Assembly (NCBI GenBank): GCA_964450715.1 | Contig: CAYVFC010000001.1 | Span: forward strand, 18,336-82,335 | Direction of reading: 5' to 3' | Origin: an uncultured Sandaracinaceae bacterium | GTDB lineage: Bacteria; Myxococcota_A; Polyangia; Polyangiales; JAFGIB01 | Length of the DNA: 64,000 nucleotides | Shown: positions 11,731 through 30,962 of the stretch, in pieces | Numbering within the stretch: position 1 is the stretch's first letter | Layout of the letters: the number at the start of each line of letters is the position of its first letter | Notes under the pieces: generated by a model | Database searches by the model: none | Seen by the model: only the letters and a program-made list of their open reading frames with translations | Told to the model about the DNA's origin: nothing | Program-made: the position numbers and the translations under genes

Positions 11731-11772
11731 AGGTATACCCTCCACATGTTCATGTGTGCGGCTGTACGTTAA

Positions 11773-11794
11773 TTGACACCGCCTTGCTTGTCAA
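11773..11794. promoter_or_regulatory. Back-to-back TTGACA hexamers (TTGACA-N10-TGTCAA): divergent -35 boxes or an operator
   Basis: Perfect inverted hexamers between divergent pal and the aminotransferase; TAACGT lies 17 bp from the minus-strand copy. Confidence 0.45.
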
Positions 11795-11846
11795 CGAATG
11801 GCGGGACCCGTAGATTCCCCCTTTTTTGAGAAACGGAGGATGGGCG

Positions 11847-13055
11847 ATGAGCGGTAACGGGGAGCTGGCCGGCAGGATGCGGGCGCTCAAGCGCCCGGCG
11901 ACCGGCGTGGTGTTCGAGCGCGCGGCCGAGCTGGTACGGGCCGGCATCGACGTGATCTCCTTTGCGGTGGGCGAGCCCGACTTCGAGACGCCCGAGAGCA
12001 TCCGCGAGGCGGCCAAGCGGGCTATCGACGGGGGGGCGTCGCGCTACACCGAGGCGCGGGGTGTGCTTCCCCTGCGCGAGGCCATCTGCGCCGACTCGCG
12101 GCGGCGGCGCGGCGGGATCGAGCACGGTCCCGACCAAGTAGTGGTGAGCGTGGGCGCCAAGCATACGCTCTTCAATATCTCCCAGGCGCTCTATGATCCG
12201 GGCGACGAGGTGATCATTCCGATCCCGAGCTGGGTCAGCTACCCCGAGCAGGCGCGGCTGGCCGGTGCGCGGCCGGTGCTGGTCTCCTGCAGCGAGCAGG
12301 ACGACTTCCTGCTCACCGCCGAGGCGCTGCGACGGGCGGTGAGCGAGCGCACCCGGGCGCTGGTGCTCTGCTCGCCGGGCAATCCCACCGGTGCGGTCTA
12401 CACCGAAGGGCAGCTGGCCGCTCTGGCCGAGGTCGCCCGGGAGCACAGCTTCTGGATCGTTTCGGACGAGGTCTACTGCCAGCTGACCTACGATGGCTTC
12501 CGACAGCGCTCCATTCTCGAGGTGGCGCCCGACCTGCGCGATCGCATCGCGGTTGTGGACGGCGTGAGCAAGAGCCACGCCATGACCGGCTGGCGTATCG
12601 GCTGGCTGCTCGGGTCCGAGCGGCTGGCCGCGGCCTGCGCCATCATCCAGAGCCAGGTAGTCAGCAATCCGACTGCCGTGGCTCAGCACGCGGCCCTGGC
12701 CGCGTTGAGCGGAGAGCAGGCAAGCGTCGAGCAGATGCGCGCGGTCTTCGAGCAGCGCCGCGAGCGGATGGTCAGCGGACTGAACGCCATCGCGCCGTTG
12801 AGCTGCCGGATGCCCAGGGGGGCCTTCTACGCCTTCGTCGATGCGCGCGGCTTGCTGGGTAAGCGGACGCAGGGCGGTACGCTGCATGACGACGCGCAGA
12901 TCGCCGGCTGGTTGCTGGAAGAGGCCAGGGTAGCCGTGGTGCCCGGCAGCGCTTTCGGCGCACCGGGTTATCTTCGCTTCAGCTTCGCGGTATCGGTGGA
13001 CCGGATCGAGGCGGGGCTCGGGCGCGTCGCTGACGCGATCGCGCGCCTGGGTTGA
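11847..13055 (+). CDS. aspC: PLP-dependent class I/II aminotransferase (AspC-like)
   Basis: FAVGEPDF, GAKH, WVSY, SPGNPTG, SDEVY, VSKSHAMTGWRIG, GAFY, YLRFSFA. Confidence 0.88.
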   Translation: MSGNGELAGRMRALKRPATGVVFERAAELVRAGIDVISFAVGEPDFETPESIREAAKRAIDGGASRYTEARGVLPLREAICADSRRRRGGIEHGPDQVVVSVGAKHTLFNISQALYDPGDEVIIPIPSWVSYPEQARLAGARPVLVSCSEQDDFLLTAEALRRAVSERTRALVLCSPGNPTGAVYTEGQLAALAEVAREHSFWIVSDEVYCQLTYDGFRQRSILEVAPDLRDRIAVVDGVSKSHAMTGWRIGWLLGSERLAAACAIIQSQVVSNPTAVAQHAALAALSGEQASVEQMRAVFEQRRERMVSGLNAIAPLSCRMPRGAFYAFVDARGLLGKRTQGGTLHDDAQIAGWLLEEARVAVVPGSAFGAPGYLRFSFAVSVDRIEAGLGRVADAIARLG

Positions 13056-13114: not shown

Positions 13115-14131
13115 CTATTCGTCGAGCTCGGGGCTGCGCGGCTCCCCGTTATCATTCGCGCCGGTCGCGGCCACGGCGCGGGCGACCAGCACCATGGCCA
13201 GCGTGAAGGTGACCAGGCGTTCCGGCGAGCAGGGCGCGTAGCCGGCAGCCATCCAGGCGAGCAGGCCCGCGCCCACCTGCCTGCGGTTGGCCTCGCTTCC
13301 CACCAGCGCACCGAACGCGGCCGAGAAAGCCAGGGTGAGCGGAAGGACATAGAGCACCGGTAGCTTGTCCGAGAAGAAGTCGACTCCCTGGGAGAGGCGC
13401 AGAAGCTCGGTGAAGTACCGGGGAGAGATGGCGAGCGCCTGGAACAGGCTCCAGACGGCCGGCAGCAACACGGCGAAGCTGAGCAGGCGAGCGAACACGC
13501 CACGCCGCCCGCGCTCGACCGGAAAGGCCGTTAGCGTCAAACCCAGCAGCCCGAGCAGGTAGCTTATCTCACCCAGGTCCCGCATGACCTCGAGCGTTAC
13601 GATCTGCCAGGCATCCAGCTGCCGGTGCGCCATTACCGGTACCACCTGGGCGGGGAAAGCCAGCAGCGCGGCGGCCGCGCAGAGAAGCCCGGCGGCGCGC
13701 GCCGGCAAGAGCGAGGTGTTGCGCACCGCATTCATGCATACGGCCACCGCCAGCACGTTGGCGGCGCCCACCCCGAAGAGGACCATCTCCGCGCTGGTAT
13801 GCTCCTTGGGAAAGAAAGCGGCCAGGGCCATGGTTGGCAGGAAGATCCCGGAGAAGGTGGCGACCAGCAAGCGGCGGCCTAGGCCGGCGTGGTTTGCGTC
13901 GCGTACGAAGAGGAAGAGCGCGACGAACAGGGAGCAGAGCCCGGCGATGCCCGCCAGGTTGGCGAAGAAGCGGCCGTGGGTGGCGAGCCGGAAGATCAGA
14001 TCGTCGCTGGCCTGGCCGCTCAGTGCGGGTATGGCCACCCGCTTGACACCGGTGGCGACGACCGCCGCCAGGGCGGTAACCAGGGCGAGCGGCGGCATGC
14101 TCTCCTGGGCCGCGAGATCCGGGCGTCTCAC
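13115..14131 (-). CDS. Hypothetical polytopic membrane protein, translationally coupled to ACP
   Basis: Many hydrophobic helices; GTG start overlaps the ACP TGA (GTGA). Confidence 0.75.
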   Translation of the reverse strand: MRRPDLAAQESMPPLALVTALAAVVATGVKRVAIPALSGQASDDLIFRLATHGRFFANLAGIAGLCSLFVALFLFVRDANHAGLGRRLLVATFSGIFLPTMALAAFFPKEHTSAEMVLFGVGAANVLAVAVCMNAVRNTSLLPARAAGLLCAAAALLAFPAQVVPVMAHRQLDAWQIVTLEVMRDLGEISYLLGLLGLTLTAFPVERGRRGVFARLLSFAVLLPAVWSLFQALAISPRYFTELLRLSQGVDFFSDKLPVLYVLPLTLAFSAAFGALVGSEANRRQVGAGLLAWMAAGYAPCSPERLVTFTLAMVLVARAVAATGANDNGEPRSPELDE

Positions 14132-14370
14132 CCCGCCTGTTGCCCCAGCTTGCTCTCGATCAGGGCGACCACCGAGTTCAGATCGACGATCTCCTCCAGC
14201 TCCTCTTCGGGAACCTTGATCTTGTAGAGCCGCTCGACCTCGTTGATGACCTCGATGGCCATCATCGAATCGATTCCTAGATCCTTGAAGGGAATATCGT
14301 CCGGCACTTCGTCGATCTCGGCTACTTCGATGATAATCTCCCGAAGCTTCTCCCTGAGGTCTTCGCTCAT
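14128..14370 (-). CDS. Acyl carrier protein
   Basis: 80 aa, acidic, DLGIDSMM phosphopantetheinylation motif. Confidence 0.92.
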   Translation of the reverse strand: MSEDLREKLREIIIEVAEIDEVPDDIPFKDLGIDSMMAIEVINEVERLYKIKVPEEELEEIVDLNSVVALIESKLGQQAG

Positions 14371-14713
14371 CTCACCCGACTCCTGTTCGCCTGTGAGCCC
14401 CGGGTTTCGGTCCGGTCGCCGGTTCGCGGCCGTCGCGTTCGGTCACTCGACAGTTACGGTCCCGAATTCGCTGTTCGTGGTCGTCAATTCGAATTCGTTT
14501 TCTCGTGGGATATTTAGGCCGGGCGACCGGAATGAATCGCTTTGCGTGTGATCGATCATTGCACGAGGGATCGGCGAATTACGCGGTTCGGGGGCTGCCC
14601 TGCCGGTCTCGGAACGGTTTGGTTTACAGAGGTAAAACGCACCGGCGGACCTTATGTAAAGTCTCTACCCCGGGGATGTCAAGCGGCATCATTTGCGGCA
14701 AAATTAGGCCGAT

Positions 14714-14729
14714 CGGCCGACGTGTTGCA
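14714..14729 (+). promoter_or_regulatory. Possible sigma54 (-24/-12) promoter
   Basis: cGGccgacgtgTTGCa with GG-N10-GC spacing, about 60 bp upstream of the KS ATG. Confidence 0.3.
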
Positions 14730-14790
14730 TTGATCGCGGCTCGGAAAACCTTGCGGGTGCTGGATCGATTCGGTATAGGATGGACCCAAA

Positions 14791-16029
14791 ATGAGCCGGG
14801 TCTACGTCACAGGGGTGGGGGTCATAAGCTCCCTGGGATTCGGGCGCGAGCGGTTTTCGCGAGCCATGACCGCGGGCGAGTGCGGTTTCGCACCCATCGA
14901 ATCCTTCGATACCGCTCTGTTCGGCCGTTCCATCGGCGGAGAGGTCAAGGGGTTCCGCGCGCGCGACTTTCTCACCGCGGCCGAGGCGCGGCGCTGCGGC
15001 CGCTGCTCGGCCTTCGCCATCGCTGCCGCTCGCATGGCGGTCGGGGACGCGGGGCTCGAGCCCGAGCAGCTGGGCGGCGAGCGCACCGCTGTGATCTTGG
15101 GAACCACCATGGGCGAGGGCGACGTGATGTCGGACCTGGAGCACGTCTGGATCCACGAGGGCTTGCAGGCGGTCGAGACCGCTAAGTTACCGCGCTACGG
15201 CACCACGCTGCTGCCCATCAACGTGGCGCGCGCACTGGGGGCGCGCGGCATGGTGCAGACCTTTCCCGCGGCCTGCGCCGCCGGCAACTACGCCCTGGCC
15301 TTCGGCGCCGACCAGATACGCGCCGGAAGGGTGGACGTGGTCATTACCGGGGCCAGCGAGATAATGCACCGGCTGCAGTTCGCCGGCTTCGTGCGGCTCG
15401 GCGCCATGGCCCCGGAGAAGTGCCAGCCCTTTGACAAGAACCGCAAGGGCATCATCGTGGGCGAGGGAGCCGGTGTGCTGATCCTGGAGTCCGAGCGCCA
15501 TCTGGTTCGGCGCAACGGCCGGCCGTTGGCCGAGATAGGAGGCTCGGGCGTGGCCTGCGACGCGCACCACATCACGCGTCCGCACCCGGATGGAGTCGGC
15601 AACGCCCAGGCTATGGTCGACGCGGTACGCGAGAGCGGCATCTCGCTCGACGAGGTCGATTTCGTCAACGCCCACGGGACCGGCACCCATCAGAACGACA
15701 AGATCGAGTCCCAGGTCATCCGCAAGGTGTTCGGCGATCGGTCTATTCCGGTGAGCAGCCTGAAGAGCCAGATCGGCCACTGCATGGGCGCGGCGAGCGC
15801 CATGGAGGCGATCGCCTGTGTGGCGACCATCGAGAGCGGTATCTATCCTCCCACGATCGGTTACGAGACTCCAGATCCGGAGTGCGACGTGAACCTGGTG
15901 GCCAACCGGGCCGTGCAGGGCAAGGCGGATATCGTCATCAACAATTCGCTGGGATTCGGCGGCCACGACGCCATCGTGACCTTCGCGCGACCGGGACGGT
16001 TGCCCGAACGCGCACCCGCTCCGGTGTAG
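14791..16029 (+). CDS. Beta-ketoacyl-ACP synthase (FabF/type II KS-like), catalytic triad intact
   Basis: PAACAAG (Cys), NAHGTGT (His), KSQIGH (His), NNSLGFGG. Confidence 0.92.
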   Translation: MSRVYVTGVGVISSLGFGRERFSRAMTAGECGFAPIESFDTALFGRSIGGEVKGFRARDFLTAAEARRCGRCSAFAIAAARMAVGDAGLEPEQLGGERTAVILGTTMGEGDVMSDLEHVWIHEGLQAVETAKLPRYGTTLLPINVARALGARGMVQTFPAACAAGNYALAFGADQIRAGRVDVVITGASEIMHRLQFAGFVRLGAMAPEKCQPFDKNRKGIIVGEGAGVLILESERHLVRRNGRPLAEIGGSGVACDAHHITRPHPDGVGNAQAMVDAVRESGISLDEVDFVNAHGTGTHQNDKIESQVIRKVFGDRSIPVSSLKSQIGHCMGAASAMEAIACVATIESGIYPPTIGYETPDPECDVNLVANRAVQGKADIVINNSLGFGGHDAIVTFARPGRLPERAPAPV

Positions 16030-16054
16030 TAGAACCGCACCGTATTATACTACC

Positions 16055-17275
16055 GTGATCCCTCTCGCCATAACCGGTTACGCGGTTGTCAGCCCCTTGG
16101 GCGTCGGGCGGTCTCAGTGGTTGGAGGCGCTGCGCGATCCAGCGGCGTCGAGCGCCCGGGCCTTCGCCGTTCCCACCGTGCTCCGACCGGATACGGTGCC
16201 CGGAGCGCTGGCCGCCGAGGTCTGGGGATTCGACGCCACGCAGTATCTGGGCCCCAAGGGGCTGCGCAACTTCGACCGGCTGACGCGCTTCCTGATCGTG
16301 GCCGGCAAGCTGGCGCTAGAGGACGCAGGAGTCAAGAAGCAGGGGGCGTTCGTCGCGCTCTCTCCGGAGCGGGTGGGGGTCTGTTCGGCCACCGCCTACG
16401 GGTCGCTCGATTCGATCACCGAGATGATGCTGGTCTCGGAGCTGGAGGATCCGCGCTACGTCAACCCGGCCCGCTTTCCCAACACGGTGATCAACTCGGC
16501 CGCCGCCTACGTGAGCATCTGGGAGGACCTGCGCGCGCCCAATACCACCATTGTGGACGGCAACTGCGGCGCGCTGGATGCCGTGCTCACCTGCGAGACG
16601 CACCTCGCCAACAACCGCGCCGACGCCTTTCTGGTGGGCGGCGGCGAGGTGCTGAGCGAGCCGCTCTACATCGCTTTCCGCAAGCTCGAGCTGCTGGCGG
16701 AGGGCGCGGAGGGCTACCGGCCCGGCGAGCCCGGCAGCCGAGGAATGCGCCTGAGCGAGGGTGCGGCATTCCTTTGTATGGAGCCGGTAGAGGGCGCGCG
16801 GCGGCGCGGCGCCGAGATCCGCGCCACCGTGGTGGGCTACGGCAACACCTTCGAGCCGCCCGCCTCCGAGGCCGTGCTGGCCCACGCCTCCCCGCGGTCG
16901 ATCGACCGGGCGGTGCGCCTGGCATTGCGCGAGGCGGGTATGCAGCCCGGGGAGATCGACCTGGTGTGCCTCTCCGCCAACGGCATCGAGCAGTTCGACG
17001 GCGCGGAGCTACAGGCGGTCCGGGAGATCGTCAATCCGCAGGTGGCCATCGCCGCGCCCAAGTCCCTATACGGCGAGAGCCTGGGGGCGAGCGGCGCCAT
17101 GGGCATGGCGGCGGTGCTGGGCTGGTTCGAGGGGGTGCAGCCGGCGCCGCTGCTGCAGGGAGAGGCAGCGGTGCCAGCGACAAACGCGCTGGTGCTTTCG
17201 GTGGGATTTTACGGCAACGCGTCCGCCGTGGTGCTAAGGAAAGCGGCGGGTAGCGGAAAGGCGGGTGAGGCGTGA
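16055..17275 (+). CDS. Ketosynthase-fold protein lacking catalytic residues (chain-length-factor-like)
   Basis: KS fold motifs (FPNTVINS, GGGE, LSEGA) but DGNCGALDA / CLSANG / KSLYGES at the Cys/His/His positions. Confidence 0.8.
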   Translation: MIPLAITGYAVVSPLGVGRSQWLEALRDPAASSARAFAVPTVLRPDTVPGALAAEVWGFDATQYLGPKGLRNFDRLTRFLIVAGKLALEDAGVKKQGAFVALSPERVGVCSATAYGSLDSITEMMLVSELEDPRYVNPARFPNTVINSAAAYVSIWEDLRAPNTTIVDGNCGALDAVLTCETHLANNRADAFLVGGGEVLSEPLYIAFRKLELLAEGAEGYRPGEPGSRGMRLSEGAAFLCMEPVEGARRRGAEIRATVVGYGNTFEPPASEAVLAHASPRSIDRAVRLALREAGMQPGEIDLVCLSANGIEQFDGAELQAVREIVNPQVAIAAPKSLYGESLGASGAMGMAAVLGWFEGVQPAPLLQGEAAVPATNALVLSVGFYGNASAVVLRKAAGSGKAGEA

Positions 17276-18504
17276 GCTGGGTAGACGAGAAGACGTACGC
17301 GGAGCTGGCACGGATCCGGGAGGTTCGCGACAAGCAGGCCTACCCCTTTTGCAGACCCTTCGAGACCGGCGGGCTGCACACCAGCGTCGAGGGGCACCAG
17401 ATCGTCAACTTCAGCTCCAACGACTATTTGGGGCTGACCAACCACCCCAAGGTCAAGGAGGCGGCCAAGGCGGCGGTGGATCGCTTTGCCTGCGGGATGA
17501 GCTCCTCGCGTATCCAGGCCACGGCGACCGTGCACGTGGAGATCGAAGAGCGGCTGGCCGCCTGGTACGGCTTCGAGAGCGCGCTGGTCTTCACCACCGG
17601 CTACCAGGCCATGGTGGGCACCATCATGTCGCTGGCCGACCAGGATACCACGTTGGTGCTGGACAATCTGAGCCACGCCTGCATTCTGGACGGCACCTTC
17701 CTGGCAGCGGGTACGCCGCGGCGCTCTCCCGAGGTCAGGTTCTTCAACCACAACTCGGCGCGTTCGTTAGAGCGCATCCTCAAGAATCGGGACCGCAAGA
17801 ACGCGCTGGTCATCTTCGAGGGCGTCTACTCGCTGGACGGCGACAAGGCCAACATGGTCGAGCTGGTCGAGGTCTGCGAGAAGTACGACGCGGTGGTACT
17901 CTGCGACGACGCGCACGGTACCGGCACGCTGGGCAAGCGGGGGACCGGCGTCATCGAGCACTTCGGACTGCAGGGCAGGGTGCCCATCGTGGTCAGCACC
18001 TTCAGCAAGACCTTCGGCGGCATCGGCGGGATCCTGCTGGGCTCGGCCGATCTGACCGATCACGTCAAGCACACCGCCCGCTCCTTCGTCTTCAGCGCTA
18101 CCTTGCCCGCGCCCATCGTAGCGGCGGCCAGCACCATCCTGACCATGCTGGAGACCGAGGGGCCGGCCCTGGTCGAGGAGCTGCAGGAGAAGGCCGGTTA
18201 CATGCGCTCGCGCCTGACTGAGCTCGGGTTTGATCTGGGTATCAGCAACACCCATATCATGCCGGTCATGTGCCGCGACGAGCGCAAGGTGATGTTCATG
18301 CACCTGGCGCTCTACGAGAGCGGCGTCTTTATGGTTCCCGTCATCTATCCGGGCGTCAAGCACGGCGAGGAGCGGTTGAGGCTGAACATCACCCGCGGCC
18401 ACAGCCGCCAGGACATGGACAAAGCGCTCGAGCTGCTCGATACCTACGGCCAGGCTTTCTTCGTACAGTCCGGCGACGAGATCGGCCCCATGGAGGAGGA
18501 GTGA
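17272..18504 (+). CDS. Alpha-oxoamine synthase family PLP enzyme (serine palmitoyltransferase-like)
   Basis: NFSSNDYLGL, TTGYQA, LDNLSHAC, EGVYSLDGD, DDAHG, STFSKTFG (PLP Lys); GTGA overlap with the upstream gene. Confidence 0.85.
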   Translation: MSWVDEKTYAELARIREVRDKQAYPFCRPFETGGLHTSVEGHQIVNFSSNDYLGLTNHPKVKEAAKAAVDRFACGMSSSRIQATATVHVEIEERLAAWYGFESALVFTTGYQAMVGTIMSLADQDTTLVLDNLSHACILDGTFLAAGTPRRSPEVRFFNHNSARSLERILKNRDRKNALVIFEGVYSLDGDKANMVELVEVCEKYDAVVLCDDAHGTGTLGKRGTGVIEHFGLQGRVPIVVSTFSKTFGGIGGILLGSADLTDHVKHTARSFVFSATLPAPIVAAASTILTMLETEGPALVEELQEKAGYMRSRLTELGFDLGISNTHIMPVMCRDERKVMFMHLALYESGVFMVPVIYPGVKHGEERLRLNITRGHSRQDMDKALELLDTYGQAFFVQSGDEIGPMEEE

Positions 18505-20453: not shown

Positions 20454-20750
20454 GGGACGTACCCAACTAAATCAACTTCCGGAAGTAAAGTAGAAAGCGG
20501 AAACGTACCCAACTAAATCAACTTCCGGAAGTAAAGTAAAGGAAAGAGAAGAGGGGGCAAATCGCCCGATGGCGGTAAGTTGTTTAAATTGGGTACGTCC
20601 CCCGACTCCCCCCCGACTCCGTCCCCCGACTCCCCGATGGCGGTAAGTTGTTTAAATTGGGTACGTCCCCCGACTCCCGACTCCCCGACGGCGGTAAGTT
20701 GTTTAAGTTTGGTACGGCCCCTGACTTCTCGTCCCCTGACTCCTGACTCC
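20454..20750. repeat. Cluster of short related repeats: two 36-bp direct repeats plus three oppositely oriented copies separated by CCCGACT/CCTGACT heptamers
   Basis: acgtacccaactaaatcaacttccggaagtaaagta at 20457 and 20503; cccga(t/c)ggcggtaagttgtttaaattgggtacgtcccc-like units at 20565, 20633, 20684. Confidence 0.85.
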
Positions 20751-21066
20751 GAACGACGAGGCCCCGCGTCACGTATCTAGCTATCGTATCGCTCGCCAAC
20801 TCTACAACACCGACAGGATGCAACTTCTAGAAACTTCCAGGAGAAAATATTCGTAAAAATAGTCAGGGTAACAGTGGCGAATTCTCAAAAAGTACTTGCG
20901 AAGACGAAGGGAGCGGTGTGCCGCTCGACGCAAGCTAATCGAAAGGGTATTATCCGTGTACGGATTACTTGTAGTCGGGGCGGGGCGTAGGTCTGTCTGC
21001 TAACAAAAATCGGTATAAACGCTCGACGTAAGGCGACCGAGCGGGTATCATCAGCTCAAGGATTAC

Positions 21067-21101
21067 TCGTAGACAGGGTGGAAGCGTAAATCTGTCTACG
21101 A
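21067..21101. promoter_or_regulatory. 10-bp perfect inverted repeat in the leader of the first island gene
   Basis: tcgtagacag (21067-21076) / ctgtctacga (21092-21101). Confidence 0.4.
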
Positions 21102-21141
21102 ACCGAAGCTGGCGGAAACGATCTGAGTGCTAATCAAAAGA

Positions 21142-22899
21142 ATGTCGAAGACCAAGATACGTTTTGACCTAATTGCTTTCGGCATCTCGATCGGAATACT
21201 TTTCTTGTTCGCCTTGACCTTCCGAGCGGCGATACAAGCCCGATATGTTATGGACGAATTTCTTTGGGCTTCTTTCGCCGGGGATATCTATCGCGGGCTC
21301 CGACCCTATGTCGATTTTCAGTTCGGGAAGACCGTGCTAGGGCTATATCCCTTCGTCACTCCGTTCTTGTTTTATGATGACACCGCTTCCATCATGCGAG
21401 GTAGTCGATTCATCGGACTAGCTATTGCGGTCGGCGCTCTTATAACGACTTTCGCTGTTTGTCGTCAAGCCTTCCGGCAGCCGGATTCAGAAACCCCGTC
21501 GGCGGGGTTAGAAGATCAAGCGGTAATAGAACGATTCCGTCCTTTAAAGTATATAGGCCTATGGTCTATCTTCTGGATGCTGGCATGCAGTACCTTCCGA
21601 GAGAACTGCTATCAACTCCGAGTAGATATGGCGGCTACGCTGTTCGCGTTAGCCGGAATCTTTCTATATCTAAAGTACAGCGGGCGAACCGGAGCGGTGC
21701 TTTCTGGGGTGTTTGTCGGCCTGGCGTTTTGTATTACGCAAAAAGCAGCATATTTCGTGTTCGCCTTCATGGTCGCAATTATTGCGACTTCCGGCGACGG
21801 TTATCGTCGCTCGTTGCAGCGCCTCGGGCTGTTTGCCGCGGGCGTTGCCGCTTCCTTGGAGGTTTACGTTCTAGCATTCGGTCACGGCGGTTTTTACCAA
21901 GACGTGATCGGTACTACTTTCTTCGACCCCGCCATTGTCGACGTCGCATTAAAGAAGGAATATCCGAACTTAAAGGTTTTTTATTGGCAGATGATATCGC
22001 GAAACTACATTTTTTGCGCGATATCACTCTTCGGCCTTGGCTACGAAGTTAGGCGGTGGACGCGAAACGATCCTCGGCGAAGGTTTTTCTTCGTCTTTAC
22101 TATTACGATGTTGGTCCTGGCAGCGTTACATCGAGCGCCCTGGCCGTATACGTTCGTCATGGTAGTTCCCTTCCTTGCCGTATACGCGGCATTGGCGGGT
22201 CATGTAGCTGTCGAAGCGATTAGCAAGTACCGATATCTGGTTTATCCGGCGCTACTGTTAGTTCTACTGGTCATTTTCGGGCAATCGTTTCTACGATCTG
22301 AAGAGCATTTGCGAATTCCATTGGCGATTCAACTACGCACGGTAGCTGCTGCGGAGGCTATACTAGGCCCTGAGGATACCTATTACGATGCAATTCGTAT
22401 CATAGCCGCGAGACGACCGGCGAGCCGTGTGATTCTTCAGAAGGTGGCATTGAATCAATTGAGAAACGCCTGGGGCCGGCTAGGTTGGTCGTTTATAGAA
22501 GGGATACGGGCTAGTAAATGTAAACTTATGATCTATAATTACCGTTTAGAGTCGTTGCCGGCAAGCTTTAAGGTCTTTATGGTCGATCACTATGTGCTAA
22601 TCGGCGCCAATATATTCGTATCCGGTGCTGAGGTGACCGGTCCAAAGGAAGTAATCGACCTCGTTTGGCCGGGAAGATACCTGGCCTTGAAGAGCGGGGA
22701 TTGCAAGAATATATATATAGATGGTAAAAGGCTCTTGGAAAGAACTTCTTCGGTGAAGCTGGACGCCGGAAGGCATAAAATAGGTTTTACTGGTAAAGGG
22801 ACTCTGCTGCTGGTTCCGGAGGATGCGGGGCGCTGGGTACTGCGCCACGGATTGAGGAAGAAGTTGGTGGCGCTTTTTCACAGAATATATGAGCAGTAG
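21142..22899 (+). CDS. Polytopic membrane protein, GT-C (ArnT/PMT-like) glycosyltransferase candidate
   Basis: MDEF acidic pair after TM1, LRVD, many TM helices, soluble C-terminal domain. Confidence 0.6.
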   Translation: MSKTKIRFDLIAFGISIGILFLFALTFRAAIQARYVMDEFLWASFAGDIYRGLRPYVDFQFGKTVLGLYPFVTPFLFYDDTASIMRGSRFIGLAIAVGALITTFAVCRQAFRQPDSETPSAGLEDQAVIERFRPLKYIGLWSIFWMLACSTFRENCYQLRVDMAATLFALAGIFLYLKYSGRTGAVLSGVFVGLAFCITQKAAYFVFAFMVAIIATSGDGYRRSLQRLGLFAAGVAASLEVYVLAFGHGGFYQDVIGTTFFDPAIVDVALKKEYPNLKVFYWQMISRNYIFCAISLFGLGYEVRRWTRNDPRRRFFFVFTITMLVLAALHRAPWPYTFVMVVPFLAVYAALAGHVAVEAISKYRYLVYPALLLVLLVIFGQSFLRSEEHLRIPLAIQLRTVAAAEAILGPEDTYYDAIRIIAARRPASRVILQKVALNQLRNAWGRLGWSFIEGIRASKCKLMIYNYRLESLPASFKVFMVDHYVLIGANIFVSGAEVTGPKEVIDLVWPGRYLALKSGDCKNIYIDGKRLLERTSSVKLDAGRHKIGFTGKGTLLLVPEDAGRWVLRHGLRKKLVALFHRIYEQ

Positions 22900-23020
22900 C
22901 CAGGCTGTTGTTTGATGCCGAGAAATACCGCGTCGAGATGCGGCGGCGGATAATGCCTCGACGAAGTAAAGCTGGATATATGGGGTTTTCTAAAGTTCTT
23001 CAGTCGATGAGAATGAACGG

Positions 23021-24385
23021 ATGAATAGACGGGTTGCGCTTGTTCAGCCCCGGCTTCCCGACCGGAACTTTATACCCAGCCTAGGGTTGTTATACCTAGC
23101 CGCCGTACTCGAGGCGGAAGGGTTCGAAGTTCGCATATTTGACGAGAATCTAGATGAGGCGTATTGCGAAGAGCTAGTTCGCTTTCGCCCGCTCGTCGTA
23201 GGCTTTACCGTCGTGACGGCGGCGGTAAACCGAGTACGACGTTGTATTTCGGAACTGAGGTCGCGACTACCCGACGCAAGGACAGTTGTCGGGGGACCGC
23301 ACGCGAGTTGTAGGCCGGAGGACCTGGTCGGGCCTTTAGCAGCGGATTTTGCATTCGTAGGAGAGGCGGAGTATCCGTTTCTTGATCTATGCCAAGCTCT
23401 GGTTAGAGGATCGAACGATTACGAATCCATCTCCAATCTGGTACAAAGCCGCAACGGTTCGCTGGTCCGAAATCCGAGCAGGCGGCTGCTCACGACCGAA
23501 GAATTGGATAGGCTTCCGCTACCGGCTTTTCACTTGCTGGACCTGGAGCGGGTGTATCCGTTGTTGACGCACGGCCTTTTTTCGCGTGGTAACAGGACGC
23601 TTCCGATAATGACCTCTAGAGGCTGCCCGTATTCGTGTAGCTTCTGCTGCCGTACAATGGGAAGGGAAATGCGGGGGCGTTCAGTGGAAAACGTCTTGGC
23701 GGAGATCGAGCACCTTATAGAGCGGTTCGAACTGGACGGTATCTACTTCGAAGACGATAATTTCACCTTTGACCGAGAGAGGGCGATGAGGATACTCTCG
23801 GGTATTGCCGCCAGGTTTCCAATGCTGAGCATCAAGTTTGCCAACGGTCTTCGAGCGGATAGAGTAGACGAAGGTCTACTGAAGGCGATCAAGGCCGCCG
23901 GTGGTTATTGGATAGGGTTCGGCATCGAATCGGGATCGCGGCGCATACTCAAATCGATGCGGAAAAGTCTTGATTTGAACCAGGCGCGGCGGAACATAGA
24001 GGTAGCGAAGCGTCTCGGATTCAAAGTCGGATCGAACATCATACTCGGATATCCGGGCGAGACTTGGAGGGATATCGCCGAAAGCATCGGGTTCTTCTTC
24101 CGCCTGAACCTAGACAGTCTGGCGATCGTGAATCTGGTTCCGTTTCCCGGAACCGCTGTTCACGAATTGTGCTATAAAGCCGGATACCTAACGGCCGAGG
24201 CTTCGAATTTAGACAACTATTATTTCGGCCTATTAAAAGTGAAGCACCTGATCCGAACTCCGTCGCTATCGCCCGTCGAGGTACAAGCATCTATTTGGCT
24301 AGCGTACGCGGTCTTGTATGGAACCTCGTGGAAACGGTTGAAGCGTATCTCGGAGACGGTTGCGAGGAAGATTCTGAGGCGTTGA
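23021..24385 (+). CDS. B12-binding radical SAM protein
   Basis: PSLGLLYLAAVL, VVGGPHAS, TSRGCPYSCSFC, FEDDNF, GIESGS, ILGYPGET, VPFPGT. Confidence 0.92.
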   Translation: MNRRVALVQPRLPDRNFIPSLGLLYLAAVLEAEGFEVRIFDENLDEAYCEELVRFRPLVVGFTVVTAAVNRVRRCISELRSRLPDARTVVGGPHASCRPEDLVGPLAADFAFVGEAEYPFLDLCQALVRGSNDYESISNLVQSRNGSLVRNPSRRLLTTEELDRLPLPAFHLLDLERVYPLLTHGLFSRGNRTLPIMTSRGCPYSCSFCCRTMGREMRGRSVENVLAEIEHLIERFELDGIYFEDDNFTFDRERAMRILSGIAARFPMLSIKFANGLRADRVDEGLLKAIKAAGGYWIGFGIESGSRRILKSMRKSLDLNQARRNIEVAKRLGFKVGSNIILGYPGETWRDIAESIGFFFRLNLDSLAIVNLVPFPGTAVHELCYKAGYLTAEASNLDNYYFGLLKVKHLIRTPSLSPVEVQASIWLAYAVLYGTSWKRLKRISETVARKILRR

Positions 24386-24386
24386 C

Positions 24387-25322
24387 ATGGAAAGAGAGAA
24401 TAGAAAGATAGCCGTCGTCATTCCCTGCTATAACGAGGCCCAAACGATAGGGAAGGTAGTTGAGGACTTCAAGAGAGAGCTTCCGGACGCGGAAATATAC
24501 GTGTATGATAACAATTCTAAGGATAGAACCGCGGAGGTGGCGAAGAGGAGCGGAGCTAAAGTTCGTTTCTGCACGAGACAGGGTAAGGGGATGGTGGTGC
24601 GCCAGATGTTTGCGGAGGTGTCCGCAGATGTCTACGTGATGGTCGACGGCGACGACACTTATACCGCGAGCGATGTACACGCGCTGCTTGCGCCGGTGCT
24701 TGACGGTACTTGTGACCTTTGCGTGGGGAATCGTCTCCAAAGATACGCCCGCGGCTCATTTGCGTTATTCCATCTGTTCGGAAATAGGCTCATCAAAACA
24801 ATGATGGAGCGTTTTTACTTGGCGAGAATTGACGATATGTTGTCAGGTTATAGGGTGCTTACTCGTGAAGTGGTAGAGGACCTAACGTTAATCTCTACGG
24901 GATTTGAGATAGAAACGGAAATTAATATCAGAGCGGTTTGGAGAGGTTATCGGATCGTTTGCGTCCCCACCATATATAAGAAGAGGCCAGAGGGAAGCGT
25001 TTCAAAGATCCGTTTGTTTTCGGACGGGTATCGCATATTGGCGACGATGCTGGTTTTGTTACGCGAGCATCAGCCGGTGACTATGGCGGGGTACGTTTTA
25101 TTGATGTGTACTTTGCTTGCGGCTGCGGGTATGGCCTCCGGGCTTCATTACGGCAACGTATATTTATTCACAGGGGCGCTAGCCCTTTTAGTATGCGGGG
25201 TAACGGTCATATGTACTGGAATTGTCCTGAATGCGACAAACTGGGCGCATAGAGAATCGGAAGTTCGAGAGCAAAAGTTGATACGCTTATTGAAAGAATA
25301 TAGAAGCGAAACCGATCGATGA
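24387..25322 (+). CDS. GT2 glycosyltransferase, polyprenol-phosphate glycosyltransferase (DPM1/ArnC-like) with 2 C-terminal TMs
   Basis: VIPCYNE, DNNSKD, GKG, VDGDDTY, SGYRV, GFEIETE. Confidence 0.88.
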   Translation: MERENRKIAVVIPCYNEAQTIGKVVEDFKRELPDAEIYVYDNNSKDRTAEVAKRSGAKVRFCTRQGKGMVVRQMFAEVSADVYVMVDGDDTYTASDVHALLAPVLDGTCDLCVGNRLQRYARGSFALFHLFGNRLIKTMMERFYLARIDDMLSGYRVLTREVVEDLTLISTGFEIETEINIRAVWRGYRIVCVPTIYKKRPEGSVSKIRLFSDGYRILATMLVLLREHQPVTMAGYVLLMCTLLAAAGMASGLHYGNVYLFTGALALLVCGVTVICTGIVLNATNWAHRESEVREQKLIRLLKEYRSETDR

Positions 25323-26710
25323 AGGTATTGTTACTAAGCCCGCCGTTTAAGAAGGACTATATGCGCAACGCTCGTTGCGACTTCGTGTCTCAATCGCACA
25401 CCCAGTGGTATCCGATTTTGCTAGGATCGGCGGGAGCGTTGTTGGAAAAACACGGGCACGAAACGCGTCTGGTAGATGCCCCGGCGGAGAATCTTTCCGA
25501 GCGAGCTGTAGAAGCGATAGGGCGCGATTTTCAGCCGGACGTGTTAGCCGTGTACGGAGGGAGAATGAGCGAGCGATCCGATCAGGAGTTGGCGGATCGC
25601 TTTTCGGCGAATCTAGGATGCCGAACCGTATTTTGCGGTCCATATGTTTCGATCGCACCCCGTCGGTGGCTCGAAAATACCGAAAGGGTAGAGGCGGTTA
25701 TCGACGGAGAGATGGAATTCACGCTGTTAGAATTCGTCGAGAAGAGAAACAACGATAGTATTTCCGGCCTGATTTATAAGAGGGGAGATGATGTCGTGGC
25801 GAATTCGAGCCGCGCTTATATGAATACGGAACAGCTAGACAGTATCCCGTTCGTTTCAAGCTATTTAAAAAGGCAGGTAAATATTAGAAATTACCGGGCG
25901 ATTTCGGAGCCGTTTCCTTTTATGGACATCATGTCGGGACACGGCTGCCATTGGGGAGTGTGTTCGTTTTGCTTGTGGGTACATAGCTACGTAAAGGGAC
26001 GTGTCTACAACGGACGTTCGGTAGAACGATTAATCGGCGAATTCGAGTACGTAAGGACTTGGATGCCGGAAGTTCGTTCGATAATGATACAAGATGATAC
26101 GATCCCCGAAGCGCGCATGATCGAGATGTGCGAAGCCCTTATTCGCGCGCGGATAAAACTGGTCTGGTCTTGCTATGCTAGGGCGGAGCTTGAGGCGGAG
26201 ACGTTGCGGTTAATGAAAAAGGCAGGGTGCCTCAACTTGCACGTAGGTTTCGAGTCGGCTGACGAGGTAGTGCTGAAAAAAGCTAGGAAGGGAATAAGCA
26301 GAGGTCGTATGACGCGCTTCGCCGCCGATGCTCGTAAAGCGGGCCTGCATATTCACGGAGATTTCTTGATAGGGCTGGACGGTGAAAGACGAGAGAGTGT
26401 TTTGAAAACGGTAGAGTGGGCGAAGTTTTTGAAGGTGGACTCGGCTCAATTTCAAATGATGATACCATTTGAGGGTACGCCGCTTCACAGATCTCTTACC
26501 GAAAAGGGGCAACTACGGGATGGATATCCCGACTACCCACATTTATCGATAGAGGAAATGAAGGGGTTGCAGCGAAAGGCTTACCGGTCTTTTTATCTAC
26601 GTCCGAGCCAGTTGCTCAAGATAGCTGCGCATCCGAAGAGCCGGCTTTGGCACTATTTGAAGGTTGCGCACAAGATTGTACCTAACATTATCGGTAAGGC
26701 GGAGTGCTGA
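25319..26710 (+). CDS. B12-binding radical SAM protein, HpnJ-like
   Basis: QWYPILL, VDAP, GCHWGVCSFCLW (CX4CX2C), QDDT, WSCYARA, GFESA, IHGDFLIG, IPFEGT. Confidence 0.85.
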   Translation: MKVLLLSPPFKKDYMRNARCDFVSQSHTQWYPILLGSAGALLEKHGHETRLVDAPAENLSERAVEAIGRDFQPDVLAVYGGRMSERSDQELADRFSANLGCRTVFCGPYVSIAPRRWLENTERVEAVIDGEMEFTLLEFVEKRNNDSISGLIYKRGDDVVANSSRAYMNTEQLDSIPFVSSYLKRQVNIRNYRAISEPFPFMDIMSGHGCHWGVCSFCLWVHSYVKGRVYNGRSVERLIGEFEYVRTWMPEVRSIMIQDDTIPEARMIEMCEALIRARIKLVWSCYARAELEAETLRLMKKAGCLNLHVGFESADEVVLKKARKGISRGRMTRFAADARKAGLHIHGDFLIGLDGERRESVLKTVEWAKFLKVDSAQFQMMIPFEGTPLHRSLTEKGQLRDGYPDYPHLSIEEMKGLQRKAYRSFYLRPSQLLKIAAHPKSRLWHYLKVAHKIVPNIIGKAEC

Positions 26711-27889
26711 GTGACCATTTCGCTGTTAGGCTATCTGATAGGCGGTGTATTGATAACCGTACTAGCATGGTGCTACAGCGTCTATTATCTCGTTTTAGAT
26801 AGGGGGAGGGAGACGACAGGAGTCGTAGAATCTACTGTCGACGAAGAACCATTACGCTTTAGTATTATCATTCCGTGTTACCAGGAAGAAGGGTGGATCC
26901 TAGAGAAACTAGAAAACACCGCGATGTTGAAATATCCAGAGGAATGCGTAGATATATTCGTTGTAGACGGAGGGTCGACGGACGAGACGCCTAAGATAGC
27001 CGAGGAGTACTGCGTATCGAGGAAGAACTATCACTTCGTTTCGTCGCCGAAAAAGGGAAAGATACCGCAGTTAAATCATATATTAAAAGACGTTGATGGC
27101 GGAATTGTCGTCGTTACGGACGTTGACGGCAAGGTCGCGCCGGATGCATTGCAAAAACTGGCTCAATTATACCGGGACCCGAGAGTAGGTTGCGTCAGTG
27201 CATTCGCGGAACCTACGAATCCTTCTCCGGAAGAAAAACTTTTTTGGCGATATCAGAACGCGATGCGTTCGATAGAGAGCGAACGCGGGCATGTCTCGGT
27301 AATGATAGCGGTGTTCTATTCGTTTCGGCGAGAGCTGTTTCATCTTTATCCGGAAGATGTGGTCGCCGACGATGTTTATGTAGCGTTTTGCGGAAATACA
27401 CGAGGATACAGGTGTCATTATAGCGCCGGCATACGGGCAGCAGAATCTAGAAGCGCGAGCTCGTTTTCTCAAATGCTAGAGCATAAGCTAAGAAAAGTTA
27501 ACGCGAATATGAAAGAGTTGGTTCGCTTTTGGCCGAGGCTGGCGGAGATGCGTGGCGTATGGTTGGTAATATATATCACGAAGTACGCGCAACATTGGTT
27601 TGTGGCTCCATCTATCCTGGCTCTCGTGGCGTTGTTTACGGCGACGTTAGCGCTCGACGGCGTTGGGGCTCTGAAGTTTTGGGGCCTAGCGGTCGTGACT
27701 TTGGTTTTTTTACAAGGAATGGCGAATAAGGCAATGAAGAAATATATGGGGGCTGCCGAGGGAAAGAGGGATAAGGCGCGGATAGGCCGAAAGCTTCTGT
27801 ATATGGTCTTCTTTCATATGATACTATTACTGGGGCTTATTCGCTACTTTGTCGTTCGTCAGTCGAGCGTATACAAAAAGGTAAACTAG
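26711..27889 (+). CDS. Membrane-anchored GT2 glycosyltransferase
   Basis: N-terminal TM, IIPCYQE, VDGGSTD, GK, TDVD, ADD, C-terminal TMs; GTG start. Confidence 0.85.
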   Translation: MTISLLGYLIGGVLITVLAWCYSVYYLVLDRGRETTGVVESTVDEEPLRFSIIIPCYQEEGWILEKLENTAMLKYPEECVDIFVVDGGSTDETPKIAEEYCVSRKNYHFVSSPKKGKIPQLNHILKDVDGGIVVVTDVDGKVAPDALQKLAQLYRDPRVGCVSAFAEPTNPSPEEKLFWRYQNAMRSIESERGHVSVMIAVFYSFRRELFHLYPEDVVADDVYVAFCGNTRGYRCHYSAGIRAAESRSASSFSQMLEHKLRKVNANMKELVRFWPRLAEMRGVWLVIYITKYAQHWFVAPSILALVALFTATLALDGVGALKFWGLAVVTLVFLQGMANKAMKKYMGAAEGKRDKARIGRKLLYMVFFHMILLLGLIRYFVVRQSSVYKKVN

Positions 27890-27902
27890 CTGAAGGGGAA
27901 GA

Positions 27903-28907
27903 GTGTATATAGTAGCGGGAGCGAACGGTTTCGTTGGAGCATCGGTATGCCGATCGCTGGCGGACGAAGGCCGGGAAGTAACCTTGCTTGTACATCGGCG
28001 AGCCGACCATCCGTTTCTGGAAGAAAGGGCGGGAAGGCTGGTGTACGGCGATGTATGTTTTCCGGAGACCTATCGGAATTTGCTCGACGAGAAATCGATA
28101 GTCATCAATTGCGCGGGATACGTATCGTTTAGCCGGGAAGACCGCGAGGAAACGTGGAGGGTAAACGTAGAAGGGACGAGAAGGTTGCTTGATGCGTGCG
28201 AGAAAGCGAAGGTAAAGACAGTATTACACGTTTCCGCAGGAGCATCCTACAAAACGGTTTCGACAAAACAGGGACTAATCAGCGAGGAATCGGAATTTGT
28301 AGACGAAAAGGGCAACGATTACGCGCGCAGCAAGAAGGAAGCGGAAACGCTATGCGCGGATGCGGCCGCTCGGGGGTTACGAGTACTGATCGTAAACCCG
28401 GCTACGACCTACGGAGCGGGAGACTACCGGTTAAAAGCTGGCGGCCGCGTGGTAGATGAGGTCGTACGAAGGCGGGCGCGCGTCGCGCCGCCGGGCGGCA
28501 CTTCGTGGATAGATATCGACGACCTAGTAGAAGGAATTAAGAGGGTGATAGAAAAAGGTAGATCGGGAGAGAGTTATATCTTGAGCGGAGGGAACCTGAC
28601 GTATCGAGAGTTGTTTTCGGTGATTGCTGAAGAGACGGGGCTGATAGCCCCGAAGATCGAAATACCGGGGCAATTGGAGGGCGCAATTGTAGCGATCGCA
28701 ACCTTAGCCGATAGCGTTGCCAAGAAGATGAAAGTAGGGCGTTCGATATCACCGGAACAGATAGGCGAAACCTTTCGCTATAAATGGTACTCTAGCGATA
28801 GGGCTAAAAGAGATGTGGGATTTAGCGCCAGAACGGATTTCAGCGAGAGCGTAAGAAGGACGATAGAGTTCAGTAAAAAATACGGTCTGGGAATCTTTTC
28901 GTTTTAG
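27903..28907 (+). CDS. NAD-dependent epimerase/dehydratase (HpnA/DFR-like extended SDR)
   Basis: GANGFVG, NVEGT, YARSK, VNPATTYG, GESYIL. Confidence 0.88.
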   Translation: MYIVAGANGFVGASVCRSLADEGREVTLLVHRRADHPFLEERAGRLVYGDVCFPETYRNLLDEKSIVINCAGYVSFSREDREETWRVNVEGTRRLLDACEKAKVKTVLHVSAGASYKTVSTKQGLISEESEFVDEKGNDYARSKKEAETLCADAAARGLRVLIVNPATTYGAGDYRLKAGGRVVDEVVRRRARVAPPGGTSWIDIDDLVEGIKRVIEKGRSGESYILSGGNLTYRELFSVIAEETGLIAPKIEIPGQLEGAIVAIATLADSVAKKMKVGRSISPEQIGETFRYKWYSSDRAKRDVGFSARTDFSESVRRTIEFSKKYGLGIFSF

Positions 28908-28933
28908 CGGAAGTAACGAAACGGTGGGATCGG

Positions 28934-29722
28934 ATGGTCAAAAAGACAGTAGGCGGAAGAAACCTATCGAATGAGAGGGTAAAACAGGCCAACCGCAAGT
29001 TTTTCGATATGGTTGCGGAAGATTACGAAGTCGCTGATGGGAGAAGAGGGCCGCGGCTAGCATCTTATCTGCGGAAACAGATCGGCCGGCTAATTTCGTT
29101 GACGGGACGCGAGAGCCTTCTCGATTTAGGAACGGGGTCCGGATTCGCGGCTTCAGTAGCGAGGGAGCAATATGAGTTTGTGGTCGGTGTCGACATTTCC
29201 TCGAAAATGGTGCGCGAAGCAGCCAGGCTTCATCCGGATTGCCGGTTTCTTTGCGCGGATTCGGACGCGTTGCCGTTCGGTAGCGAGACCTTCGATTGCG
29301 TAGTATCGATCGCGGTGTTGCATCATTTACCGCGCTACGATTCGATGTTGAGGGAAGTTTATCGAGTATTAAAACCGGGAGGGGTATTTTATTCGGACCA
29401 CGATATAGAGAGTCGTTTTTGTCAACTATTCAAGATGCCGTTGGGTATGTTTCGCTTAGTACGAGACGAAGAACGTGCATACCGAAAAGTATGCCCTGAG
29501 CTGACTAGCGAGCTCTATGAGCTTACGGAAGTACACCGAAACGGCGTGGAAATAGAGCTTATTAGAAGAGATCTCGAGAGTGCCGGGTTCAGCGATAGTA
29601 GGTTCTATTACCACTGGTACGGATTGAACGGAATATTCGACTATGTAGGAGCGTTATTGTCGCCGGGAGGAAAAGGGAGACGGGGGTTTGCACCGTCGGT
29701 ATCGATCTGGGCGCGTAAGTAG
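28934..29722 (+). CDS. Class I SAM-dependent methyltransferase
   Basis: LDLGTGSG, GVDIS, ADSDALPF, FDCV, VLHH, VLKPGG. Confidence 0.9.
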   Translation: MVKKTVGGRNLSNERVKQANRKFFDMVAEDYEVADGRRGPRLASYLRKQIGRLISLTGRESLLDLGTGSGFAASVAREQYEFVVGVDISSKMVREAARLHPDCRFLCADSDALPFGSETFDCVVSIAVLHHLPRYDSMLREVYRVLKPGGVFYSDHDIESRFCQLFKMPLGMFRLVRDEERAYRKVCPELTSELYELTEVHRNGVEIELIRRDLESAGFSDSRFYYHWYGLNGIFDYVGALLSPGGKGRRGFAPSVSIWARK

Positions 29723-29732
29723 GAGAAAAAGG

Positions 29733-30827: not shown

Positions 30828-30845
30828 AGCTAGTTTTGTAGGGGG
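30806..30845. repeat. Short tandem duplication at the island right end
   Basis: agctagttttgt at 30806 and 30828, each followed by a G run. Confidence 0.7.
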
Positions 30846-30962
30846 TAAGGGAGGGCGTACGGCTTCGGTGACGGGTGCGGACGACGCCTTGAGTAAAAGC
30901 CCGGCCAGCTAGGAATCGACGTTATAGCCGTCCTCGAGCAGGGCGAAAGCGATTTATTATAC

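Follow-up and report, generated by a model that had tools for sequence, protein, structure and literature searches.

What does a bacterium make with a dedicated acyl carrier protein (ACP), two dissimilar ketosynthases and a stand-alone alpha-oxoamine synthase (AOS) encoded side by side? The question is raised by a 64,000-nucleotide stretch of DNA (hereafter, the window) from an uncultured Sandaracinaceae bacterium (GenBank assembly GCA_964450715.1, contig CAYVFC010000001.1, positions 18,336 to 82,335), in which these genes lie between 13.1 and 18.5 kb. A first-pass annotation, made from the sequence alone, had proposed a dedicated ACP-dependent elongase feeding an AOS, with the chain then off-loaded onto an amino acid. 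Synteny across related genomes and the contexts in which relatives of the AOS occur support that outline, and the evidence as a whole tips, if not heavily, toward a dissociated load-extend-release pathway for an amino-ketone or sphingoid-like lipid. All parts of the cassette come from known superfamilies and the chemistry has precedents; the gene combination itself is new in the literature searched. Full-text searches returned no description of it, and locus tags of M. xanthus and Sorangium were found only in PMC9386255.

Enzymes of the cassette

The genes are arranged divergently. On the minus strand lies the ACP gene (14128-14370; 80 aa; PP-binding domain, E=2.4e-14), with its phosphopantetheine serine, Ser35, in a GIDSM motif. 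Beyond a 420-bp intergenic region between the ACP and KS operons (14371-14790), the plus strand encodes an active beta-ketoacyl-ACP synthase (KS; 14791-16029; 412 aa; ketoacyl-synt N- and C-terminal domains, E=2e-34 and 8e-33), a degenerate ketosynthase (KS'; 16055-17275; 406 aa; Pfam ketosynthase domains, E=8e-20 and 3e-12) and the stand-alone AOS, which is dependent on pyridoxal phosphate (PLP) (17272-18504; 410 aa; Aminotran_1_2, E=1.4e-49). KS and KS' are spaced by 25 nt, and the KS' stop codon overlaps the GTG start codon of the AOS as GTGA, the coupling that the first-pass annotation had read from the sequence. Reading frames between 13.1 and 18.5 kb have a third-position GC content (GC3) of 0.80-0.90, which marks the ORFs of the cassette as coding frames; domain matches, catalytic residues and GC3 together confirm that the genes of the first-pass annotation exist where it had placed them.

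The two ketosynthases differ in their active sites. KS has an intact catalytic triad (C162/H295/H330) together with K325 and the GFGG gate; its score against the FabF equivalog is 368, short of the cut-off of 494. In an alignment with T. thermophilus FabF, KS' carries N170/S307/E341 at the triad positions and keeps K336; a cysteine, Cys171, adjoins Asn170, one residue out of the nucleophile register. These features are not peculiar to the window, as N170, K336, E341, F141 and V145 are invariant, and C171 nearly so, among 23 KS' homologues of 57-84% identity. KS and KS' are only 25% identical to each other, and the pair must therefore be old.

Both subunits found their best match among solved proteins in the same PDB entry. 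KS matched amxFabF2 (9s5h_B) at 368 bits, ahead of Iga11 (307) and B. subtilis FabF (279, with no FabF scoring higher), and KS' matched amxFabFmut (9s5h_C) at 140 bits, ahead of T. thermophilus FabF (120, again the ceiling for FabFs). KS' and amxFabFmut have in common an NPxxFPNTVxN motif where canonical FabF has SPFFIPMMIAN. Within it, F141 and V145 of KS' correspond to the tunnel-lining F135 and V139 of amxFabFmut, and the second triad histidine is replaced by glutamate in both proteins. The window thus encodes an adjacent pair of one ketosynthase with an intact C-H-H triad and one triad-less homologue, as in amxFabF2/amxFabFmut.

The chain names of 9s5h and 9s5i are generic and a text search for '9S5H' found no paper; from a matching preprint we infer that these entries represent the amxFabF2/amxFabFmut heterodimer of Brocadia fulgida, alone (9s5h) and in complex with amxACP (9s5i). 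The preprint describes an obligate heterodimer, like that of a KS and a chain-length factor (CLF), which is active only as a pair and decarboxylates malonyl-amxACP; F135 and V139 of the inactive subunit shape its chain-length preference, with crosslinking greater for C8 than for C16 (bioRxiv 10.64898/2026.05.19.726425). Judged by homology, KS and KS' would form a heterodimer of this type, and we propose that KS' is the non-catalytic, chain-length-setting partner of KS. By analogy, the conserved tunnel residues hint at a medium-chain acyl group rather than one of C16-C18.

The window ACP fell below every housekeeping-ACP cut-off, and its top three PDB matches were the anammox amxACPs 7qv0_D, 7auf_A and 9s5i_E (39-43 bits, with other ACPs at 32 or less). 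As ACP, KS and KS' each best-match anammox proteins, they correspond protein for protein to the trio of anammox Cluster I (PDB 9s5h/9s5i, 7qv0, 7auf), in which one intact and one degenerate ketosynthase, the latter with the His-to-Glu exchange and the Phe- and Val-bearing tunnel motif, likewise share a dedicated ACP. The two systems differ in gene order (here the intact KS comes first, in Cluster I the degenerate amxFabFmut), in the residue at the cysteine position (Asn here, Val or Thr there) and in host phylum, and KS' and amxFabFmut are distantly related. They also differ in their partners, which are an AOS with or without a fatty acyl-AMP ligase (FAAL) here, and FabZ, a phytoene-desaturase-like protein and a B12 radical S-adenosylmethionine (SAM) enzyme in Cluster I.

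The first-pass annotation had instead likened the pair to the KS-CLF heterodimers of type II polyketide synthases (PKSs). Examples of these are the pairs of actinorhodin (1tqy), ishigamide (Iga11/Iga12, 6kxd) and cispentacin (AmcF/AmcG) synthesis. The likeness includes the adjacent active and inactive ketosynthases, the dedicated ACP and the scores of KS against Iga11 (307 bits) and the AmcF model (210 bits); the cispentacin system, moreover, has its ACP loaded by a ligase and extends the chain by one C2 unit. However, KS' scored 76.2 bits against Iga12 and 72.8 bits against Act KS-beta, and at 73-76 bits these chain-length factors rank below ordinary FabFs. KS' also has Asn170 in place of Gln, and the pair is accompanied by no cyclases, aromatases or ketoreductase (KR). 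On sequence grounds the pair is not a strict type II PKS KS-CLF, and its best match among solved proteins is the anammox pair, of fatty-acid-synthase (FAS) type.

The AOS has the residues of a fold-type I PLP enzyme that define its superfamily: K246 (the Schiff-base lysine), H135, D213, H215 and R368/R370 align to serine palmitoyltransferase (SPT), ThAOS and KBL, and are invariant in 121 of 121 orthologues. It scored below the cut-off of every NCBIfam AOS equivalog. The highest-scoring model was bioF (TIGR00858; 330.8 bits, 96 bits short of the cut-off of 426.45), followed by SPT-CFB (321.7 vs 640), the BioF/Kbl subfamily (311.5 vs 535), KBL (297 vs 460), SPT-beta (274 vs 500), ALAS (239 vs 339), a third SPT model of the alpha type (224 vs 670) and the CqsA-type model (188 vs 428). 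Among PDB sequences searched with phmmer, the best match was S. multivorum SPT (252.7 bits), followed by the promiscuous Thermus ThAOS (241), by KBLs and the sulfonolipid cysteate acyltransferase (about 214-217), and by the solved BioFs (93-196 bits, with E. coli BioF the highest at 195.6). The earlier impression that the AOS is closer to SPT than to BioF thus holds for the solved proteins and fails for the curated models, among which bioF outranks SPT-CFB with both below their cut-offs. In public annotations the orthologues bear generic or conflicting names.

At the amino-acid selectivity site, the position of ThAOS Val79, the family has an invariant serine (Ser79). Val79 contacts the amino-acid side chain in ThAOS, and the site is Val in all KBLs and Thr in ALAS, whereas SPT and E. 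coli AONS have Ser there (PMC11906848). Neither the Val nor the Thr that would mark a KBL or an ALAS is found here, and the invariant Ser argues against a glycine-specific enzyme while fitting one that uses serine or alanine.

A search for relatives among 1.84 billion 50%-identity cluster representatives placed only four clusters (at 55, 52, 47 and 43% identity) between the orthologue group and a bulk at 40% or less. The 52% relative (identity in the AOS part) is a 744-aa fusion of an AOS to a short-chain dehydrogenase/reductase (SDR) that adjoins an MFS transporter on a 5.3-kb contig without a KS (L088 2991-5225, P0122). In the PDB, its SDR domain matched TSC10, the 3-ketodihydrosphingosine reductase, at 90.5 bits, which is a hint only, tied as it is with many generic SDRs. 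The 47% relative (L089 4709-12596) belongs to a complete, dedicated acyl-synthase cluster. One strand holds the genes for a KS and three SDRs, and the other those for an ACP, a phosphopantetheinyl transferase, the AOS, a malonyl-CoA:ACP transacylase and a FabA/ApeI-like dehydratase. Many of the next matches are AOS domains fused behind FAAL-ACP-monooxygenase, thioesterase-ACP-monooxygenase or ACP-KS modules, and none of the ten representatives of AOS relatives that we scanned scored above an equivalog cut-off. These fusions and cluster contexts place the AOS in a poorly charted part of the family that would typically release carrier-protein-bound chains, and the AOS represents an uncharted clade restricted to uncultured Polyangia.

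Conservation across uncultured Polyangia

A KS' profile run against the GTDB set, with each species represented by one genome, identified 112 relatives, of which the best 80 were kept; the counts given below refer to the 56 loci with at least 4.5 kb of upstream and 1.5 kb of downstream flank. All of the best 80 of the 112 are Myxococcota metagenome-assembled genomes (MAGs), from Sandaracinaceae, Polyangiales and related 'Deltaproteobacteria' bins, bar one that is labelled Gemmatimonadales. The latter (L003/L023, JANRIW010000031.1; 59% KS' and 71% AOS identity) could be a case of mis-binning or of horizontal transfer. Orthologues are present in at least 112 species-level genomes and number more than 1000 among metagenomic proteins.

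KS lies beside KS' in 47 of the 56 loci, and an AOS 68-78% identical to that of the window is found in 45, usually 0-60 nt past KS'. Two further genes recur: a FAAL of 560 aa (AMP-binding plus DIP2-like domain) in 40 loci and a hotdog thioesterase in 21. KS, AOS and FAAL occur as a full set in 32, and the arrangement seen most often has a minus-strand FAAL-ACP-ACP(-thioesterase) operon diverging from a KS-KS'-AOS operon on the plus strand. KS-KS'-AOS are therefore co-conserved in uncultured Polyangia, and the check on conserved synteny that the first-pass annotation had suggested came out in favour of a unit that is inherited together.

The carrier proteins of these loci fall into two types. 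ACP_a adjoins FAAL and vanishes with it; ACP_b stays in loci without FAAL. The window ACP is 69% identical to the FAAL-distal ACP of one related locus (L084) and 32% identical to the FAAL-proximal one, and by this comparison is of the ACP_b type. We propose that ACP_b carries the malonyl extender as well as the final acyl chain that is passed to the AOS.

Compared with most relatives, the window contains a reduced version of the cassette. The window was searched for five genes (FAAL, hotdog thioesterase, BioB, second ACP and sulfatase-family gene), and none was found; tblastn detected no FAAL remnant either. The FAAL and ACP_a genes of relatives fill about 2.2 kb at the position of the divergent intergenic region, in which scans of the window for promoters, terminators and repeats gave nothing above chance, the repeats being weak. 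The closest relative with genomic context (L004; 68% KS' identity) is also without FAAL, thioesterase and BioB at the locus.

Individual lineages depart from the common layout in several ways. In the sub-group with Pal, the aminotransferase and the membrane protein as neighbours, the pattern looks complementary: loci with FAAL and ACP_a (L006, L010, L013, L015, L019, L021, L026, L030, L036) have no AOS in the available flank of 2.5-10 kb downstream of KS', the window and L004 have an AOS and no FAAL, and L067 has both genes. One sub-clade (L016 11190-11891, L017 11193-11942, L029, L054, L061, L071, L009) has a minus-strand gene inserted between KS' and AOS; its product, about 235-250 aa long, carries a signal peptide, ends in a Gly-rich tail and resembles a small beta-barrel protein of the outer membrane. 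A KS'-AOS pair without an upstream KS is seen in L039, L043, L045, L046 and L059 (and L003), where the place of KS is taken by a DUF6159 membrane protein and, in L003, by an HXXSHH protein. In L003, a KS lies 1.4 kb off on the opposite strand.

In 9 of the 56 loci (L091 3249-4205, L084 1917-2927, L006, L015, L019, L030, L036, L038, L067), BioB is encoded no more than 10 kb from the cassette, and in L091 it is separated by only about 400 bp from the thioesterase-ACP-ACP-FAAL operon. The first-pass statement that no bio genes are nearby holds for the 64-kb window, to which it referred; these nine relatives differ. Neither bioA nor bioD was seen in the window or in five annotated related loci. 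A BirA-operator scan of 1.46 Mb of related loci plus the window found no site, even upstream of BioB, and is for that reason uninformative about a role in biotin synthesis.

A candidate pathway and its rivals

A precedent for the logic of the cassette is RedL of undecylprodigiosin biosynthesis, with the domain order A-ACP-KS-AT-ACP-AOS. There, an acyl-AMP ligase loads ACP1, the KS adds one malonyl unit on ACP2, and the AOS releases the chain with an amino acid. PigI/G-PigJ-PigH in the MBC (4-methoxy-2,2'-bipyrrole-5-carbaldehyde) branch of prodigiosin biosynthesis is comparable, and in PigJ, too, a KS is accompanied by a KS domain that lacks the Cys. The full version of the cassette in relatives would, by analogy, present ligase, two carriers, KS and AOS activities in the same order; this gene set is found in the 32 loci noted above, and the window has one ACP and no FAAL. 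Unlike RedL and PigJ plus PigH, the cassette encodes separate proteins, without an acyltransferase (AT) and without pyrrole-pathway partners. The match of KS to the PigJ model is weak (74 bits), and the Ser at the AOS selectivity site is by itself not indicative of glycine, the substrate of RedL.

In the pathway that we favour, ACP_b would be malonylated in trans, as the cassette has no acyltransferase. FAAL and ACP_a would deliver the starter acyl group in most relatives; in the window and L004, the starter would need another source, be it general fatty-acid synthesis, malonyl decarboxylation or loader genes located elsewhere in the genome. KS would perform a Claisen condensation of the starter acyl group with malonyl-ACP_b, and KS', to judge from homology and its tunnel residues, would line and limit the acyl tunnel. 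The two-carrier layout suggests one or few condensations rather than full de novo synthesis. The AOS would take the acyl-ACP_b and catalyse a decarboxylative condensation with an amino acid of small side chain, L-serine or L-alanine, to release a 2-amino-3-oxo lipid. That product could be reduced to a sphingoid-like amino alcohol or, with the beta-keto group kept, could cyclise to an alkyl-pyrrolinone, as for RedL. The reductase fused to the AOS relative described above suggests reduction to the amino alcohol in some lineages at least.

Several observations weigh against this pathway. The cassette lacks KR, dehydratase, enoylreductase and acyltransferase genes, and the reduction state of the chain is therefore not predictable; the window lacks FAAL, ACP_a and thioesterase, and so has no loader for the starter at the locus. 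Physical linkage is strong and not absolute, as 9 of the 56 loci have no AOS in the available flank (eight of these keep FAAL and KS) and 9 have KS' but no KS there (seven of these have an AOS). The chain-length argument is one of analogy, drawn from crosslinking data on a distant homologue. Lastly, the adjacency of BioB in 9 of the 56 loci and the rank of bioF as top curated model keep a role in biotin synthesis alive.

In that role, the AOS would be the BioF of this lineage, and FAAL, the ACPs and KS/KS' would constitute a dedicated pimeloyl-ACP route, for example from a C5 diacid starter by one malonyl-ACP extension (BioZ-like) and reduction by FAS enzymes in trans. We consider this unlikely, if the least so of three alternatives. 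Dedicated pimelate routes have precedents in BioZ and in the Desulfovibrio bio clusters with ACP/FabF/FabG/FabZ. The resemblance to BioF and BioZ extends to the AOS fold and catalytic residues, to the Ser at the selectivity site, which E. coli AONS shares, to the 330.8 bits for bioF, and to the BioB neighbour in some loci, closest in L091. A single-extension layout with the tunnel of the anammox homologue, which favours about C6-C8, would also suit a C5-to-C7 step. However, the AOS is 96 bits under the curated bioF cut-off, and the solved BioFs (93-196 bits) are less similar to it than are SPT (253), ThAOS (241) and KBL. No bioA or bioD neighbours accompany it, the loader is a long FAAL-type ligase and not of the BioW type, and the nearest AOS outside the orthologue group carries a fused ketoreductase, an activity that KAPA (7-keto-8-aminopelargonic acid) synthesis does not need. 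BioB is inherited in one block with the aminotransferase and membrane-protein genes, so that its adjacency may be historical. The BioF alternative, which the first-pass annotation had itself named as fatal to its proposal, is thus weakened by the sub-threshold score and the missing bioA/bioD, and kept alive by BioB in the nine loci. A biotin route of this kind would be a further way to pimeloyl-ACP, and as such also of interest.

A canonical entry into sphingolipid synthesis appears less probable again. Here the AOS would be the organism's SPT, using acyl-ACP, and the KS pair an unrelated fatty-acid paralogue placed next to it by chance. The best solved match of the AOS is an SPT, its selectivity-site Ser is that of SPTs, and some myxobacteria make sphingolipids. 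A comparable entry module, AasR-AcpR-Spt, is known from Rhodobacteria, in which an acyl-ACP synthetase and a specialised ACP are encoded together with an AOS that uses acyl-ACP and not acyl-CoA, and acpR-aasR operons are also present in cultured myxobacteria (PMC9386255). The cassette resembles that module in encoding an acyl ligase or synthetase, a special ACP and an AOS together, and differs from it in the KS pair, which the Rhodobacteria module lacks. Against this alternative, the AOS fails all three SPT equivalogs (322 vs 640, 274 vs 500, 224 vs 670); the SPTs of myxobacteria reportedly fall with those of the Bacteroidetes type. Ceramide synthase and reductase genes are missing from the window, and Pfam/NCBIfam annotation of the 64-kb window and of five related loci found no bCerS- or CerR-like genes. 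For these reasons the sphingoid product suggested in the first-pass annotation is not established. Chance adjacency does not explain the pairing, in view of the translational coupling of KS' and AOS and their co-conservation in 45 of the 56 loci.

Least probable is a signal synthase, with the cassette making either a diffusible autoinducer related to CAI-1, a medium-chain ketone with an alpha-amino or alpha-hydroxy group as made by CqsA/LqsA, or a ligand for a TetR regulator, as Bacteroides Lgs does: AOS enzymes serve this role in Vibrio, Legionella and Bacteroides, the KS' tunnel residues hint at medium chains and the cassette has no tailoring or lipid-assembly genes, but the AOS scores 188 bits against a CqsA-type cut-off of 428, no sensor kinase or regulator is consistently adjacent, and the cassette is located among housekeeping envelope genes.

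Returning to the load-extend-release pathway, its confirmation would establish a new pathway to a lipid or small molecule, phylogenetically coherent and shared by a sizeable group of uncultured myxobacteria. With only 3-7 genes, the cassette is small, which should make its heterologous reconstitution easy. A broader evolutionary reading, which we put forward tentatively and regard as somewhat doubtful, is that ACP-KS-KS' is a sibling of the trio in the anammox 'ladderane cluster', wired to a new AOS clade and making a new family of amino lipids in uncultured Polyangia; these would be short sphingoid-like bases or alkyl-pyrrolinones and widespread among myxobacteria of soil and sediment. The anammox module is genetically intractable in its hosts and has been described as part of a cluster unique to ladderane producers; ACP-KS-KS' offers a non-anammox relative of amxFabF2/amxFabFmut/amxACP. 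Were the two trios siblings, the module would be a general device for building or extending short- and medium-chain acyl groups, and not exclusive to ladderanes.

The membrane protein and the wider window

Downstream of the ACP gene on the minus strand lies a gene for a polytopic membrane protein (13115-14131; 338 aa from a GTG start; about nine hydrophobic segments), which the first-pass annotation had counted as a member of the cluster, coupled to the ACP. The coupling depends on the choice of start codon. A GTG at 14131 overlaps the ACP stop codon by 4 bp, whereas the start chosen by a gene caller on an identical contig lies about 11 codons downstream, giving a protein of 327 aa and a 29-nt gap to the ACP. 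Pfam and NCBIfam returned no match for the protein, and only 9 homologues were found among 5.8 billion proteins. Its AlphaFold2 model has a pLDDT of 58.7, and Foldseek found no match for it (best E=0.095, TM-score at most 0.24).

Cluster membership was contradicted by the related loci, where the membrane protein travels with the neighbouring aminotransferase, which it accompanies in about ten loci, and stands outside the conserved cassette. In L084, BioB, a metal hydrolase, a sulfatase-family gene and the thioesterase lie between the membrane protein and the ACPs. Separation of this kind makes the juxtaposition in the window look like the result of a deletion rather than a conserved partnership, although the membrane protein is probably co-transcribed with the ACP there.

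The cassette is flanked by housekeeping genes, namely those for DsbD, CpoB/YbgF, Pal and an aspartate-aminotransferase-like protein upstream, and that for RecQ downstream. A long minus-strand ORF at 11769-12887 was rejected as spurious, the true gene being that of the plus-strand aminotransferase (11826-13055). An Rfam scan of the whole window returned no family.

The GC content of the window is about 0.65-0.70, except in an island at 20500-31000 (20.5-31 kb), where it drops to 0.49-0.55, with a strong positive GC skew and all genes on the plus strand. The island encodes an unknown protein of 590 aa, a pair of B12-binding radical SAM enzymes that resemble HpnJ below the threshold, a SAM methyltransferase, two GT2 glycosyltransferases (one AglJ-like), an HpnA-like NAD epimerase and a radical SAM/SPASM-like enzyme, and looks like a horizontally acquired unit for lipid or glycan modification. 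In an independent assembly of the same locus (L086), the contig stops 49 bp past RecQ, at the island boundary. Taking anammox Cluster I as a model, we considered a link between the cassette and the B12 radical SAM genes and rejected it, as these genes lie in the low-GC island and are absent from related loci. Their scores of 61-104 bits against the 'ladderane-type' radical SAM model (cut-off 360) also count against such a link. Further downstream, a single 700-aa ORF (48148-50250) combines chorismate mutase, prephenate dehydratase and DAHP synthase domains.

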